A stretch of DNA of 64,000 nucleotides from positions 30,210-94,209 of the IMG/VR virus record IMGVR_UViG_3300031521_000033, one strand, 5' to 3'. Below the pieces are notes generated by a model. That model saw only the letters and a program-made list of their open reading frames with translations, did not search any database and was not told the DNA's origin. A program made the translations under genes and the position numbers. Source of the DNA: a virus. Below are positions 3,420-52,827 of this stretch, piece by piece. How positions within the stretch are numbered: the first letter of the stretch is position 1; each line of letters starts with the position of its first letter.

Positions 3420-3732
3420 GTGCTATTCCTAAATAATTACAAAGATGATATGCTTTACTTATCAGTGCATCGTCGTATTGCAAATTTGCACCACTGTCAC
3501 CTTTCCAATCTTTAAACATTTCATAAAACCTTACCGCCTTACTCTCATTTGGATAATCTATTTGCATTTTTGCCAATTCATGTGCTATTTCTGACCATCT
3601 TGCATCAGATATAATATTTACGTTCTTTTCGTAGTATAAATAACTGTGAAGTAAAATAGATAATCTCATTTGTTTAATCTTTGCCGCTATTGTTTCATCT
3701 AATGTTGAGGGCTTTTTTACTGAGAACAGCAT
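3409..3732 (-). CDS. stand-alone NAD-dependent DNA ligase subdomain Ia-like protein
   Basis: HSYLYYEKNVNIISDARWSEIAHEL resembles LigA Ia motif H..YY....P.ISD.EYD....EL; no KxDG ligase core. Confidence 0.65.
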   Translation of the reverse strand: MLFSVKKPSTLDETIAAKIKQMRLSILLHSYLYYEKNVNIISDARWSEIAHELAKMQIDYPNESKAVRFYEMFKDWKGDSGANLQYDDALISKAYHLCNYLGIALDN

Positions 3733-4101: not shown

Positions 4102-4553
4102 TATACTGTATCCTCATGTTTCTTTGCTTCTTTTACTATATATAATGTATAATCTTCCCTGTTAACTGCTTCTATAAATTTACCAATTTGTTCTGGTGTG
4201 ATTTGTCTTGTTTTAAAACAATTACCCAATCTTCGTCTTACAACATCCCCAAAAGTACCAGTCCATGTTGTACTGCATATTGTCCTATCTGCCATATTGA
4301 TGTAAAAATAGCCCTCATCTTCTTTTGCCCAAAAGGGCTTCTGGTCAATTACAATATCCCATCCACCCGTAATAAATCTACTTGCATCCGCAATATCTGA
4401 TAATGTCCAGCACCCGCTCCCATTCTGCTCAATTTCATTTTTATCATTGAATCGGTAATAATTATTTAACAAAACATTTAAATCTGTCTTAATTCTAAAT
4501 GTATCATATGGATTAATATTTTCCCACATTCTGCTCATTTCTAATTTAATCAT
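4101..4553 (-). CDS. hypothetical protein, paralog of 504..938
   Basis: Shared LGNCF motif region. Confidence 0.7.
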   Translation of the reverse strand: MIKLEMSRMWENINPYDTFRIKTDLNVLLNNYYRFNDKNEIEQNGSGCWTLSDIADASRFITGGWDIVIDQKPFWAKEDEGYFYINMADRTICSTTWTGTFGDVVRRRLGNCFKTRQITPEQIGKFIEAVNREDYTLYIVKEAKKHEDTV

Positions 4554-16933: not shown

Positions 16934-16962
16934 ATAATACCATTTTAAAACTACTTTGTCAA
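16934..16962 (-). promoter_or_regulatory. sigma-A promoter TTGACA-17-TATTAT (extended -10)
   Basis: Direct sequence. Confidence 0.75.
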
Positions 16963-19063: not shown

Positions 19064-19089
19064 TTTTATTATCTCCTTCCTTTTGTTAT

Positions 19090-19118
19090 ATAATATCACG
19101 ATACACAACAAAAGTCAA
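19090..19118 (-). promoter_or_regulatory. sigma-A promoter TTGACT-17-TATTAT inside an inverted repeat; -35 contains the primase TGA stop
   Basis: Direct sequence. Confidence 0.75.
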
Positions 19119-20128
19119 CAAAAATATTTAATTAATTTTTCAAACTCTTCTTTTTCTAAATCATTTATATCTCTACCTTCGGGAACACTAACATAATTTA
19201 TCAACTTACAGTTTATCAATGCTTTTGTAATTCTGTCTTTTCCTTTATGTCCTGCTGTGTCATTATCTAATGCTATAATATATTTCCTTACAGGTAGTTG
19301 TTTTAATTGTTCACACTGTGCTTTATTGCCTGTTCCATTTAATGCTACTGCATATTTACCATAACTCCAAATTGTCAATGCATTTATAATACTTTCACAA
19401 ATATAAACCTCATTTGGATATTCCTCTAATTGACTCAATTCATAAATTCCATATAATGGTTTTTCTACCCCAACTGGATAATTAAACATCTTTTTATCAA
19501 TTGCTCTTCTTGCAATAAATAATACCTTTCCAGTTTTATCTCGGACAGGAAATGTTATGCATTCAATTTCGTTCCCATCTTCAACTAATTTGAATGATTT
19601 ATCATACCCAACATCAAATCTTTCAATGGTTTCATCATTTAACCTTCTTTCATACATATATGGATGTGTAAAACGGTATGAATCCAATTCTACCTCACTC
19701 ACGCTGTCTGTACTAGTTTTTTCTACATTGCGTGATAGATTGCATAAGTCTATAGGCTTTCTATCGTCTACGGCAATTGTGAGGAACGTTTCTAAAAGCC
19801 ACTTCTTACCAAACATTCCCATATCGTCATAGCCAAAACAATTGGATACTAATTCTTCAAAACTCTTTGTTGTCTTACATGTTTGACAATTAAATGTTCC
19901 AGCTAATACGGGTTCATTACTTCTCATGATATCCCTTGTTAAAATTCCCGCACTTGGATGACGCTCTTGACCATTTTTGTGGTAAGGGCAAGTTACCATG
20001 ATGTTATCCCCACTTGATTTTATATCTCTAAATAATAGTAAGGGGTTATCCATATTAACTTGCCGCTTCAACTCTTTTATAATTGTCATTTCTGATTCAA
20101 GCAATGGATGGTTTGATACCTTGATCAT
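19115..20128 (-). CDS. DnaG-type primase
   Basis: CPYH...C..C zinc finger; TOPRIM CES, ALDND.AG, DIND. Confidence 0.9.
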   Translation of the reverse strand: MIKVSNHPLLESEMTIIKELKRQVNMDNPLLLFRDIKSSGDNIMVTCPYHKNGQERHPSAGILTRDIMRSNEPVLAGTFNCQTCKTTKSFEELVSNCFGYDDMGMFGKKWLLETFLTIAVDDRKPIDLCNLSRNVEKTSTDSVSEVELDSYRFTHPYMYERRLNDETIERFDVGYDKSFKLVEDGNEIECITFPVRDKTGKVLFIARRAIDKKMFNYPVGVEKPLYGIYELSQLEEYPNEVYICESIINALTIWSYGKYAVALNGTGNKAQCEQLKQLPVRKYIIALDNDTAGHKGKDRITKALINCKLINYVSVPEGRDINDLEKEEFEKLIKYFC

Positions 20129-25987: not shown

Positions 25988-26024
25988 AAAAATAAAAAGA
26001 TGAAGAAATTAATCCCCATCTTTT
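25988..26024 (-). terminator. intrinsic terminator after nrd cluster
   Basis: AAAAGATGGGGA / TCTTCATCTTTT stem with T-rich tail. Confidence 0.65.
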
Positions 26025-29767: not shown

Positions 29768-29800
29768 ATTATACCACAATATCTTGTATTTGTCAAGATA
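29768..29800 (-). promoter_or_regulatory. sigma-A promoter TTGACA-17-TATAAT with TATCTTG-N7-CAAGATA inverted repeat over -35
   Basis: Direct sequence; -35 contains TGA stop of upstream ORF. Confidence 0.8.
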
Positions 29801-36875: not shown

Positions 36876-37167
36876 GCTCCCTTTCTATCTGGTGTACCCT
36901 ATGTGTTAATGCTTCTATTTTTTCGTCACTCCTTGTCTGCCTAACTAGCAAATCCTTTTGCATTTCCCTTATACCATCTACGCTATCCGTTAATTTTGAT
37001 ATTGTCAAAACTAATGAATTTATAGATTGGTCTAGTTTATTTGTAAGTCCTTGCAATATAATATTGAATGGTCTTACTATCCATGCTTTTGCATAGGCAA
37101 GGGCAACTGCAACAATTGCCCCTACTATTGTTATTAATTGTACCAGTAATGTTACATCTATTACCAA
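36859..37167 (-). CDS. single-TM plus coiled-coil protein, holin/hemolysin-like
   Basis: N-terminal TM, heptad repeats, ends HRVHQIE; first gene of lysis cassette. Confidence 0.55.
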   Translation of the reverse strand: MVIDVTLLVQLITIVGAIVAVALAYAKAWIVRPFNIILQGLTNKLDQSINSLVLTISKLTDSVDGIREMQKDLLVRQTRSDEKIEALTHRVHQIEREHEKHE

Positions 37168-37187: not shown

Positions 37188-39830
37188 TTAGTTTGACTTG
37201 CCAGAATTATAATTTATCTTGAATGATCCTGCTGTTACTAGTGTTACACTCAAGACATTATTATTAGTATAACCATATGTATAATCGGTAACATGTATTG
37301 CCTTTGACCAATTACCTTTCATATTAACTGTTAGTGCTAATGTATCTAATAAACATTGATCTGCTGAATAATTTTCTGATAATAAAAACCCTATTCCTAC
37401 TCCTGCTGCTGTACCTATAAAACTATTCCACTGTGCCTCGGTTATTGTTGATAATAATGATGCTGATATTCCATTTGTTTTTACTGCGGTTAAATCTGTT
37501 GGATCTATTGTTTCCCATGCTAGAGTTGTAAAATTAAATGTCTTATAGTTTATTAAATCTAATGATAATATCATCTTTATTGCTGCCCGAAGTGGATAAT
37601 TATCTGTATATACCGCTGTTGGTATTGTGAAATTAGACGTATGTAGACACTGACCTTCTAACACTAAAATCTCATCAAAATAACCTGTTTGATAAGGAGT
37701 AGAACCGCCTCGGAATCCTATAGCACTGCCTCCAAAATTACCATAATATATTCTTGCCGGAAGTATCCATGAATTAACTAAAACTCCATTTTTAAATATA
37801 TAAAGAGTTTTAGTTGCATCTTTATAATCTATTTCCCAATTAACCAATATATTTAATATAGATGCAATTGTACATATATTATATGAATTTATCATATCCC
37901 ATGCAGTTGTTGATGCAACACTAGAAACAAATAATTTAAAATTAGTACTATCACTATATCCAAAAAGTATTCCAGCATCATACGCATAAGATCCATTTAA
38001 ACTAAGCATTCCACTTCCTGATGGGCATGATGTTAATAATGTGTTTAAAGATATTGTAAAATCTTTTGTCGTATCCAATGTATAGTTAGGTAAACTTAAA
38101 TATGAACTACCATCTAAATACATTGCATTACCAAATTTACTATTAGCATCTGTAAGCCCTGCAATAAATGTTTTATTAACTACTGTTGAACTAATTGCAT
38201 CTGGTGTATAAGCTGTTGTATGAGTACATGTTCCTTTTATAAAATCAAAATCTGCAATCATACCTTGTATAGTACCTGGAGCAGACCAAGCATTAAATTC
38301 AGAACCACCAGCAGGATTATAATATATTCCAACTGAAAGTGTCCATGTGTTTAACAAAATACCTTCTCTAAATAGATATAGTTTTTTTGTAGTAACATCA
38401 TAGTCTATTTCCCATCGAACCCATACATTTAATGTTGTTGGTATTATTGCACTAACTTCATTCCAAGCTGTTCCACTATTAGATACATCTAAATATCTAT
38501 TTCCATTAGCATCTTTATATCCAAATAATAATCCACACCATTGTACTGGATTAGAATTTATAAAAAGTACTGCAGCTCCAGTTGTTCCAGCTCCTGTTAA
38601 ATACTCAGAAATTTTTAATGTAAAACTACCGGTTGTATCAGTTTTAGTACAATCATTTATTAGTATTGATTTGTTTGTTATGCTAAAGGTCTTGTTTTTG
38701 ACACCAGTAATATCTTTAACTGGAACGACACTATTCGTTCCAGTTATTAAAGTTGTTCCAGTTGGGATTATATCTTTTGTAGAATCTAATACTGCTGTAT
38801 CATTATCAAAATGTAATAATACTGCTGTTTTATTATGATCTGATATTGTAGTTGTCGCACTAGCAGATACTATATCATTAAATGTGTACATGCTTATTAA
38901 ATTTTTAGGTACTGCAATTTTATCCTGCGGAACTGTTGTTAATTGTATTGTTGGTCGTGTTTCCCCTGCTGTATCTTGCCAACATACTCTTTTTGGTCTA
39001 TTCACCCCCGTTGCAATTGCTTCTAAACTTGATTGTTTTGGTGGATAATATGTGCCGCTTGCTTGCATTAATGCTATTAATGCTGTATCATCCGCAGGTA
39101 TCCCTAAATCTACCCACGCACCACTTTTTATTGATTGATAATTTCCTGCTGTTAACTTAGCTAAAAAATATTTTTCATACGAATATGCTAAAGTTGGTGG
39201 TGTGAAAGCAGCAGCCCATCGTGCTACCCCTTTTGATATTCTAAATTCATCAATGTAGCCTGCAAATCCTTGAGTGAATGACGAGGTTGACACCATTAGA
39301 CCACCTAGAGTTGCCGTTCCAATAGAACTTGCTATCGCTGATGATGAAGCAGTAGTACTTTTTAATACCCCATTTTGATAGGACTTTATTGATGTTCCTG
39401 AACGAACAAGTGCATAATGTGTCCAGGCATTTAAAATTATTGTTCCCATTGTTACGCCATTGGCTATATCCCAACTTGAATTATTACTTGATAAATAATA
39501 AATCACATTTGAACCATTTGATTGCCCCACATAAAAAGGGTAGCCAGCGGATGTAATTGAGCTGTTAGCAAATACACCTTTGGTGCCTGAATCTGTTCTA
39601 TACTCCCACCAGTCTATTGTAAAATCCGCTGTGCCGAAGTCAAATCCAGTAAAAGATGGAGTTGCTAAATACTGACTAGTGCCATTAAGCAATAGTGATT
39701 TTCCTCCAAATTTACTCTGTGCGGTTGAGACGGTTGGAGTTCCTACACCTGTCCAAATTATACTACTTTCATCCGTAAAATCTGTATCAAAATGTAACAT
39801 TGTTCTTACATATTTATCTATTCCTGACAT
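37188..39830 (-). CDS. tail fibre/receptor-binding protein with repeated LamG/ConA-like domains
   Basis: LHFD...SKFGG...DFTID.W...W.H.A.VR...GYIDEFRISKG.AR; two further degenerate copies. Confidence 0.8.
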   Translation of the reverse strand: MSGIDKYVRTMLHFDTDFTDESSIIWTGVGTPTVSTAQSKFGGKSLLLNGTSQYLATPSFTGFDFGTADFTIDWWEYRTDSGTKGVFANSSITSAGYPFYVGQSNGSNVIYYLSSNNSSWDIANGVTMGTIILNAWTHYALVRSGTSIKSYQNGVLKSTTASSSAIASSIGTATLGGLMVSTSSFTQGFAGYIDEFRISKGVARWAAAFTPPTLAYSYEKYFLAKLTAGNYQSIKSGAWVDLGIPADDTALIALMQASGTYYPPKQSSLEAIATGVNRPKRVCWQDTAGETRPTIQLTTVPQDKIAVPKNLISMYTFNDIVSASATTTISDHNKTAVLLHFDNDTAVLDSTKDIIPTGTTLITGTNSVVPVKDITGVKNKTFSITNKSILINDCTKTDTTGSFTLKISEYLTGAGTTGAAVLFINSNPVQWCGLLFGYKDANGNRYLDVSNSGTAWNEVSAIIPTTLNVWVRWEIDYDVTTKKLYLFREGILLNTWTLSVGIYYNPAGGSEFNAWSAPGTIQGMIADFDFIKGTCTHTTAYTPDAISSTVVNKTFIAGLTDANSKFGNAMYLDGSSYLSLPNYTLDTTKDFTISLNTLLTSCPSGSGMLSLNGSYAYDAGILFGYSDSTNFKLFVSSVASTTAWDMINSYNICTIASILNILVNWEIDYKDATKTLYIFKNGVLVNSWILPARIYYGNFGGSAIGFRGGSTPYQTGYFDEILVLEGQCLHTSNFTIPTAVYTDNYPLRAAIKMILSLDLINYKTFNFTTLAWETIDPTDLTAVKTNGISASLLSTITEAQWNSFIGTAAGVGIGFLLSENYSADQCLLDTLALTVNMKGNWSKAIHVTDYTYGYTNNNVLSVTLVTAGSFKINYNSGKSN

Positions 39831-52768: not shown

Positions 52769-52798
52769 TTTTAATACCCTCCATTTCCCCTTATCTAT

Positions 52799-52827
52799 AT
52801 TATACTACAAATAAGGGGATTTGTCAA
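52799..52827 (-). promoter_or_regulatory. consensus sigma-A promoter TTGACA-17-TATAAT inside a 14-bp inverted repeat
   Basis: Direct sequence. Confidence 0.85.

Follow-up and report, generated by a model that had tools for sequence, protein, structure and literature searches.

The window analysed here, a stretch of 64,000 nucleotides, is the final 64 kb of the record of an uncultivated phage (94,209 bp in total, with direct terminal repeats, 32.8% G+C and a completeness estimate of 100%). All of the window genes are on the minus strand, and the sites described below are therefore read on that strand. No close relatives were found among GenBank phages by megablast or blastn. At the protein level, the best kin are Clostridium and Streptococcus phages, at less than 40% identity, and the DNA polymerase is at most 40% identical to theirs. 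Near-consensus sigma-A-type promoters are found genome-wide, the virion module included, and each is followed by a Shine-Dalgarno sequence and a start codon. A search with two Pfam models found no phage sigma factor, so that promoter classes, including temporal ones, are not assignable. Rfam 15 yielded no match at the gathering score across the whole window. Start sites referred to below are predicted ones, placed 7 nt past the -10 box.

Promoters and hairpins at two gene boundaries

Two internal promoters of this phage overlap an inverted repeat. The first directly follows the DNA primase gene (19115-20128) and has the following features.

19113-19118, minus strand: -35 box TTGACT of the internal promoter, with the primase TGA stop (19117-19115) inside the box
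19102-19114, minus strand: 5' arm CTTTTGTTGTGTA, the promoter spacer, upstream of the predicted start site
19090-19095, minus strand: -10 box TATTAT, preceded by TG at 19098-19097; split equally between the loop and the 3' arm
19080-19092, minus strand: 3' arm TATATAACAAAAG, ending 1 nt before the Shine-Dalgarno core AAGGAG (19078-19073)

The promoter can be written TTGACT-17-TATTAT, with the TG at -15/-14, and the gene downstream is a 123-aa ORF with its ATG at 19063-19061 on the minus strand. The stem CTTTTGTTGTGTA/TATATAACAAAAG consists of 13 bp, including two G-U and two G-C pairs, around a 9-nt loop, with a predicted dG of -10.9. This agrees with the initial annotation of 19080-19118, which had described a 13-bp stem whose two non-Watson-Crick positions are both G-U on the sense RNA. 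The TGA stop of an upstream gene lies embedded in a -35 hexamer (TTGACA or TTGACT) at two junctions of the window, 29791-29796 and 19113-19118.

The second promoter lies in the tail module, between two tail genes, and follows the gene of a 1881-aa tape measure protein.

52822-52827, minus strand: -35 box TTGACA, 2 nt downstream of the tape measure TAA stop (52832-52830)
52806-52819, minus strand: 5' arm TCCCCTTATTTGTA, the promoter spacer
52799-52804, minus strand: -10 box TATAAT, within the 6-nt loop except for its final T, the first base of the 3' arm
52786-52799, minus strand: 3' arm TATAGATAAGGGGA, containing a Shine-Dalgarno-like AAGGGGA that is too distant from the AUG to serve
52782-52777, minus strand: working ribosome site GGAGGG, 3 nt past the end of the stem
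52768-52766, minus strand: ATG of a 71-aa ORF, the gene downstream of 52827

This promoter, TTGACA-17-TATAAT, is enclosed by a stem TCCCCTTATTTGTA/TATAGATAAGGGGA of 14 bp, two of them G-U and four G-C, with a 6-nt loop and a dG of -18.6. No other ungapped hairpin on either strand of the entire 94-kb genome is as strong as that at 52819-52786. The second and third strongest are both in coding sequence: a perfect 12-bp palindrome, TAACTGGAACGA...TCGTTCCAGTTA, at window 38717-38746 within an 880-aa ORF, and a hairpin of -17.9 kcal/mol at window 37097-37125, located 40 nt into a small ORF next to that 880-aa ORF.

At both sites the 5' arm is the promoter spacer (19114-19102 and 52819-52806) and is thus upstream of any plausible start site, so that the stem can form only on RNA arriving from upstream, as the initial annotation had reasoned from the position of the left arm. 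Such RNA is to be expected at 19118, because no minus-strand terminators are predicted between promoter 25982 and this site; upstream of 52827, no terminator-like stem was found in a screen limited to stems of at least 10 ungapped pairs. Among intergenic stems on the coding strand with at least 10 ungapped pairs and energies of -10.9 kcal/mol or lower, those at 19118 and 52827 are the only two that are not terminator-like. We consider it very probable that these are two sense-RNA hairpins, 19118 less securely so, specific to read-through RNA and nested over internal promoters that abut the upstream gene.

Relatives of the second junction were gathered by means of the 350-aa protein encoded downstream of 52827 and the C terminus of the tape measure protein. 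The nearest relatives of the 350-aa protein, P0002 and P0003, are 64 and 58% identical to it, and one metagenome scan and scans of GTDB added only distant relatives (32-39%), all of them without the junction element. In one IMG/VR contig (L013/L038, hereafter L013), the gene order matches that of this phage: the tape measure stop is followed by a promoter, a small ORF and the 350-aa protein. The two are only distantly related, with 42-46% identity at the tape measure C terminus, 38% in the 350-aa protein and 27% over 30 residues in the small ORFs. The L013 promoter (TTGATT-17-TATACT) nevertheless has a 14-pair stem in the same register as that at 52827, with a 34-nt element that is 79% identical (counted on the aligned sequences) against the 27-46% of the flanking proteins. 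Between 52827 and L013, 14 of 14 pairs are kept by way of two double changes (C-G to U-A and U-A to C-G) and two wobble changes, and sliding the partner strand out of register brings pairing down to 43-61%. The distance from stem to Shine-Dalgarno sequence in L013 is 12 nt. The initial annotation had looked to covariation in relatives, and the tape-measure hairpin is indeed retained through two double compensatory changes in a distant relative, albeit with L013 as the one comparator; at n = 1, a shuffle control on the covariation carries no information. A templated quasi-palindrome mutation could mimic the compensation seen in L013 at the DNA level.

No comparator is available for the 19118 junction, as the 123-aa protein downstream of it has no homologue in IMG/VR. 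Relatives of the primase, at about 50% identity, were considered for this purpose and set aside: a promoter is kept after the primase, but the hairpin in these contigs lies past the start site. In L001-L007 and L011 the promoter comes right after the primase and is followed by a 5'-leader hairpin some 40-110 nt past the primase stop. This leader hairpin, which covaries between contigs (GATAAG/CTTATC vs GCAAGG/CCTTGC) and precedes a conserved AAACTAAAAAAC leader, may be a 5' stabiliser.

Access to the ribosome site and masking hairpins

The published hairpins closest in layout are those of T4 genes e, soc, 49 and I-TevI, and also of mobE of Aeh1, which sequester the ribosome site and have a promoter nested in the 5' strand (PMC3014915). 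In T4 the 3' strand includes the Shine-Dalgarno sequence and/or the AUG, and translation is cut about 100-fold (PMC3014915). The sites at 19118 and 52827 share with T4 a promoter located in the DNA segment specifying the helix's 5' strand, which lies upstream of the start of the nested promoter; RNA from upstream folds, and promoter-started RNA does not. They differ in that the 3' strand contains neither the Shine-Dalgarno sequence nor the start codon at either site, the stems ending 1-3 nt (12 nt in L013) before the Shine-Dalgarno sequence and leaving the ribosome site predicted to be open. Furthermore, the T4 arrangement sets a phage late promoter against early read-through, whereas the promoters here are of the host sigma-A type and one of them is within the tail module.

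Ensemble opening costs were calculated for the region from the Shine-Dalgarno sequence through +13, on long RNA (100 nt upstream) and on promoter-started RNA. Long and short RNAs gave 3.0 and 1.3 kcal/mol at 52827, 2.6 and 0.6 kcal/mol at 19118, and 2.6 and 1.2 kcal/mol in L013. On long RNA, 20 control promoters mostly required 3.6-8.5 kcal/mol, and all three junctions are lower than most of these. At 19118, the best long-RNA fold also covers the AUG with a weak outer helix of AU and GU pairs, of which far less remains in a 77-nt fold. Given stems that end 1-3 nt before the Shine-Dalgarno sequence and a ribosome site that is open, we infer that the hairpin is not a translational mask. The proposal of the initial annotation, an inverted version of the T4 device that silences early genes on late read-through transcripts, fits poorly with these predictions and with the position of 52827, which is in the tail module and does not precede an early gene. 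Processing or attenuation, which the initial annotation listed as well, may still apply.

A weakened form of T4-type control is one of the two main alternatives. On read-through RNA the stem would remove the single-stranded standby region by the ribosome site, together with AAGGGGA at 52827, and translation would come mainly from promoter-started mRNA. The geometry is that of T4 e, soc, 49 and I-TevI (PMC3014915), and if opening must also include the 8 nt on the 5' side of the Shine-Dalgarno sequence, long RNA requires 15.6 kcal/mol at 52827 and 9.8 kcal/mol at 19118, compared with 1.3 and 0.6 kcal/mol on short RNA. A stem only 1-3 nt from the Shine-Dalgarno sequence could also hinder docking of the ribosome beyond what is scored by folding. 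By analogy with the full masks described below, the pair in the window could be weakened forms of translational masks. Against this, both the Shine-Dalgarno sequence and the AUG are predicted to be open on the long RNA. In L013 the same extended opening costs only 3.7 kcal/mol and the stem is 12 nt away, making it unlikely that the function common to the two relatives is translational. Neither is there an obvious reason for silencing a tail-module gene on a tail-operon transcript. On balance, we regard this weakened control as rather unlikely.

Full masks do exist in this phage and elsewhere, and they lend the idea of translational control some support. A duplex test split at the assumed start site, which under-scores both window hairpins because half of the 3' arm is upstream of the start site, revealed a helix at genome position 23706, outside the window (genome 23624-23731, equivalent to L051:125-232 on the minus strand). 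Here the -35 box of the promoter TTGACA-17-TATACT and its preceding bases, GTTGACATTA, pair with UAAUGUCAAC at the start codon in a 17-pair interrupted helix; written as GTTGACATTA/TAATGTCAAC, the pairing takes in the start codon and first codons of the promoter's own gene and extends to about 17 pairs. The helix has a z-score of -3.9 and a duplex-shuffle p<0.0005, and it also stood out in the calculation of opening costs, at 19.1 kcal/mol on long RNA vs 6.8 kcal/mol on short RNA. As modelled, it is a true T4-type case in the early region of the phage: only read-through RNA is predicted to have its start codon buried.

Three tandem promoter cassettes (2862-2921, 3626-3685 and 4222-4287) are found in L042, a phage whose tape measure protein is related to that of the present one; in each, the spacer is complementary to the cassette's own Shine-Dalgarno sequence (p=0.000, 0.007 and 0.04). 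Each precedes a small protein, the first two of which start with a signal-peptide-like sequence. Between cassettes a and b there is one compensatory change, C-G to T-A, which weakens the Shine-Dalgarno sequence (GGAGGA to GGAGAA). As at genome 23706, the Shine-Dalgarno sequence and/or start codon falls within the 3' strand in cassettes a and b.

A GTDB search pattern in which only the promoter boxes and the outer TCCCYY/RRGGGA bases were fixed, the inner arms being free, gave 11 matches, 5 of which (L085, at 4899, and L087-L090) have fully or nearly fully complementary inner arms. These are hairpins of 12-14 bp with TCCC.../...GGGA arms around sigma-A-type promoters, in Clostridia-type and other MAGs. 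Four of the five have the Shine-Dalgarno sequence as their 3' arm, and the fifth, L088, has a separate one like the window sites. Also in four of the five, the -35 box comes 2-20 nt after the stop of a long same-strand ORF of 113-866 codons. Matches to a core pattern, TATTTGTRGTATAMTATARATA, were discarded as evidence, as they are mostly unrelated promoters in which the inner palindrome is forced by the pattern. A highly conserved promoter-like element, CCTCCTTGATTTCTCCCYYTGGAGGCGATATACTGTATCCAAAGGGATTGTTCGTGG, occurs in about 27 IMG/VR contigs (L052-L079), many of them from sample 3300045988; an imperfect stem of 10 bp surrounds its -10 box, and it is not followed by an obvious ribosome site.

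The window sites thus resemble genome 23706, L042, L085, L087, L089 and L090 in having a sigma-A-type promoter right next to the stop codon of a long same-strand gene, with the spacer as 5' arm. They differ from the masking cases in what the 3' arm covers: there it is the Shine-Dalgarno sequence itself or extends over the AUG, whereas the window sites, L013 and L088 have a separate, free Shine-Dalgarno sequence. A literature search for precedents of promoter-nested hairpins outside T4 returned nothing useful. With the masking form present at sigma-A-type promoters of this phage, a related phage and several Clostridia-type genomes, the nested-promoter hairpin looks to be a general design rather than one specific to T4.

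Terminators, chance and DNA elements

A second alternative is that of an intrinsic terminator overlapping the promoter. This would be active on tape measure RNA in L013 and passed by promoter-started RNA, and in the present phage it would have lost its U-tract and become a relic or a weak pause. In L013, TTATTTAT, a U-tract of the kind expected of an intrinsic terminator, comes directly after the hairpin, and the terminator scan flags that site as terminator-like. Rho-independent terminator-promoter cassettes are used by this phage at other gene boundaries (34978, 26024, 5501, genome 29031 and genome 24427), and the hairpins stand where a terminator would be expected. Like those cassettes, they come right after a stop codon and have G-C pairs in a stable stem (four at 52819-52786, while 19114-19080 is weaker with two), and L013 has the U-rich tail. 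They differ from them in lacking a U-tract in this phage and in a stem that encloses the -10 box instead of lying ahead of the -35 box. The tails that follow the window stems are AAAUGGAGGG and GAAGGAGA, without a U-tract; directly after the stem they read AAATGGAGGG and GAAGGAGATA, and neither site is listed as terminator-like. Two unrelated stems in one genome have the same U-less geometry, and a relic would not be expected to remain the strongest hairpin of the genome. A terminator origin is in our view improbable. Two of the terminator-promoter cassettes, at window 25995-26024 and genome 28998-29031, have a common loop, GATTAATTTCTT, and different stems, and from their sequences look like related terminator copies.

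A chance pairing would concern mainly 19118, where an AU-rich spacer might happen to pair with an A-rich leader. The relevant test set comprised 24 promoters, taken genome-wide, with a ribosome site and an ORF within 55 nt downstream. In the spacer test only the 17-nt spacer was permuted, and the score was the best fold with pairing across the -10 box. This gave E = -20.4 against a null of -7.9 at 52827 (p<0.001) and -12.7 against -5.3 at 19118 (p=0.002). These two stand out among the 24; 29796 is marginal (p=0.04), and the remaining p-values are evenly spread. The folding of promoter regions against shuffled controls, to which the initial annotation had pointed, is thus favourable to both hairpins. 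At window 29796, a 7-bp arm (ATATTGT/ACAATAT, p about 0.04-0.05) abuts the AUG.

Dinucleotide shuffling of the full intergenic RNA gave z=-4.07 at 52827 and -3.40 at 19118, with none of 200 shuffles equally good at either. An energy of -18 kcal/mol was reached in none of five shuffled genomes. The hairpin at 52827 is secure against chance: it is far outside the null and conserved with compensation. That at 19118 is above chance but only moderately secure, since its p of 0.002 is drawn from 24 tests and the genome has 21 hairpins of -10.9 kcal/mol or lower, against 4-16 per shuffled genome. The lack of a relative with the 19118 junction and the primase relatives' hairpin past the start site also leave room for chance, whereas the detailed geometry shared with 52827 and the z-score speak against it. 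A non-functional by-product is accordingly judged quite improbable, and then for 19118 above all.

The same geometry had been claimed at two further sites. The claim stands for 52786-52819, with its 14 bp and two G-U pairs, and falls for 1332-1373 on the minus strand (promoter 1377-1349), where there is imperfect composite pairing only and the best fold is a different, composite structure. The spacer shuffle there gave p=0.42, the duplex test p=0.37 and the intergenic shuffle z=-1.66, with 13 of 200 shuffles as good; this site is indistinguishable from chance and has been left out of the feature. With 2 of 24 promoters affected and the third cited site at the level of chance, the term 'recurrent', used in the initial annotation, overstates the case. 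The accompanying remark that stems are missing at three promoters insulated by an upstream terminator, and not clear at 16934 and 3391, is by contrast well founded: the terminator-preceded promoters 34947, 25982 and 5458 gave spacer-shuffle p-values of 0.96, 0.73 and 0.77, promoter 16962 gave p=1.0, and promoter 3419 (3391 in that annotation), which lay outside the shuffle test set, has no stem by eye.

Strand asymmetry points to RNA rather than DNA as the level at which the elements act. Four non-Watson-Crick positions occur at the window sites and two in L013, one of the latter being common to L013 and 52827; each is G-U when read on the sense strand and would be A-C on the antisense strand. 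Sense and antisense dG values are -18.6 and -10.4 at 52827, -10.9 and -3.1 at 19118, and -21.3 and -13.9 in L013, the sense fold being about 7.5 kcal/mol better. The argument from G-U-compatible mismatches to selection on RNA, made in the initial annotation, gains from both observations. A DNA element that would switch the promoter, be it a palindromic operator bound by a dimeric regulator or a cruciform driven by supercoiling, can draw on a dyad symmetry centred on the -10 box, on the high conservation of primary sequence between this phage and L013, and on symmetric changes that would also be expected of an operator co-evolving with its protein, but is very improbable in view of mismatches that break the DNA symmetry and yet are all G-U on one strand. 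Moreover, the two palindromes are mutually unrelated and no further copies of either arm were found in the genome at up to 2 mismatches, which argues against a shared operator, and the neighbouring small downstream proteins gave no matches to HTH/RHH or other DNA-binding domains; the palindromic operator was rejected on the grounds that neither arm recurs and that no such domain is encoded nearby.

A proposed role on read-through RNA

Since the ribosome site is predicted to be open in this phage as in L013, and the stems here are not followed by a U-tract, a role in RNA processing, end protection or insulation is judged most likely. To the reading that the hairpins are intercistronic elements with such a role, present only on read-through RNA, we assign a probability of about 0.4. 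By sequence and predicted folding, each hairpin straddles a host-type, sigma-A-like internal promoter that immediately adjoins the preceding same-strand gene, no terminator intervening. Transcripts initiated at that promoter have no 5' arm and remain unstructured, whereas those that continue from the primase gene or the tape measure gene fold. The hairpin might then be both signal and barrier for host ribonucleases acting on the polycistronic transcript, dividing read-through RNA at the place where the internal promoter starts its own mRNA. It could shield the upstream message at its 3' end, the downstream message at its 5' end, or both, and it might keep upstream coding RNA from pairing with the downstream ribosome site.

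Several known systems offer partial parallels. In the cip-cel operon of Ruminiclostridium, intergenic stem-loops direct cleavage and stabilise both processed ends (PMC10311766), and in saePQRS a downstream double-stranded element guides RNase Y to an intergenic cut 6 nt upstream (PMC5449607). The elements described here resemble these Firmicutes stem-loops in being stable, in occupying a short intergenic region of a polycistronic unit, on a transcript that continues from an upstream gene whose stop abuts the -35 box, and in adjoining AU-rich single-stranded RNA with no U-tract. No promoter overlap has been reported for the Firmicutes elements, which are thus on every transcript, whereas the overlap in the present case would restrict the element, and any cleavage there, to read-through RNA. 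In T7, an internal promoter and an RNA processing site occur together at a gene boundary (phi3.8/R3.8 and phi6.5/R6.5; PMC6938266). Those pairs have the same placement of promoter and processing site, with the difference that T7 has longer RNase III helices and its own RNA polymerase. The stems of 13 and 14 bp fall below the approximately two turns (around 20 bp) of dsRNA associated with RNase III, and this shortness counts against processing by RNase III.

In a further, rather unlikely extension of this reading, promoter-nested hairpins with a free ribosome site would form a class apart from the T4 masks, as processing or insulation sites specific for the origin of the transcript. Polycistronic read-through RNA would be cut or capped by host ribonucleases precisely where the internal promoter lies. 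The downstream gene would then have processed and primary mRNAs with nearly the same leader, while a 3' hairpin would come to protect the upstream message. Such an arrangement would be the equivalent, with host RNases, of the T7 promoter/RNase III pairs, in a phage relying on the host sigma-A polymerase throughout. A nested-promoter hairpin could in addition be reused as a compact part for operon engineering.

Phages that depend on host polymerase pack internal promoters against upstream genes, and as a consequence have two kinds of RNA for a single gene. The T4 masks represent one use of a hairpin that is confined to one of these. The same nesting with the ribosome site left open, retained through compensatory changes in a distant relative, suggests that the layout also has another use, be it in the processing, the stability or the insulation of RNA.
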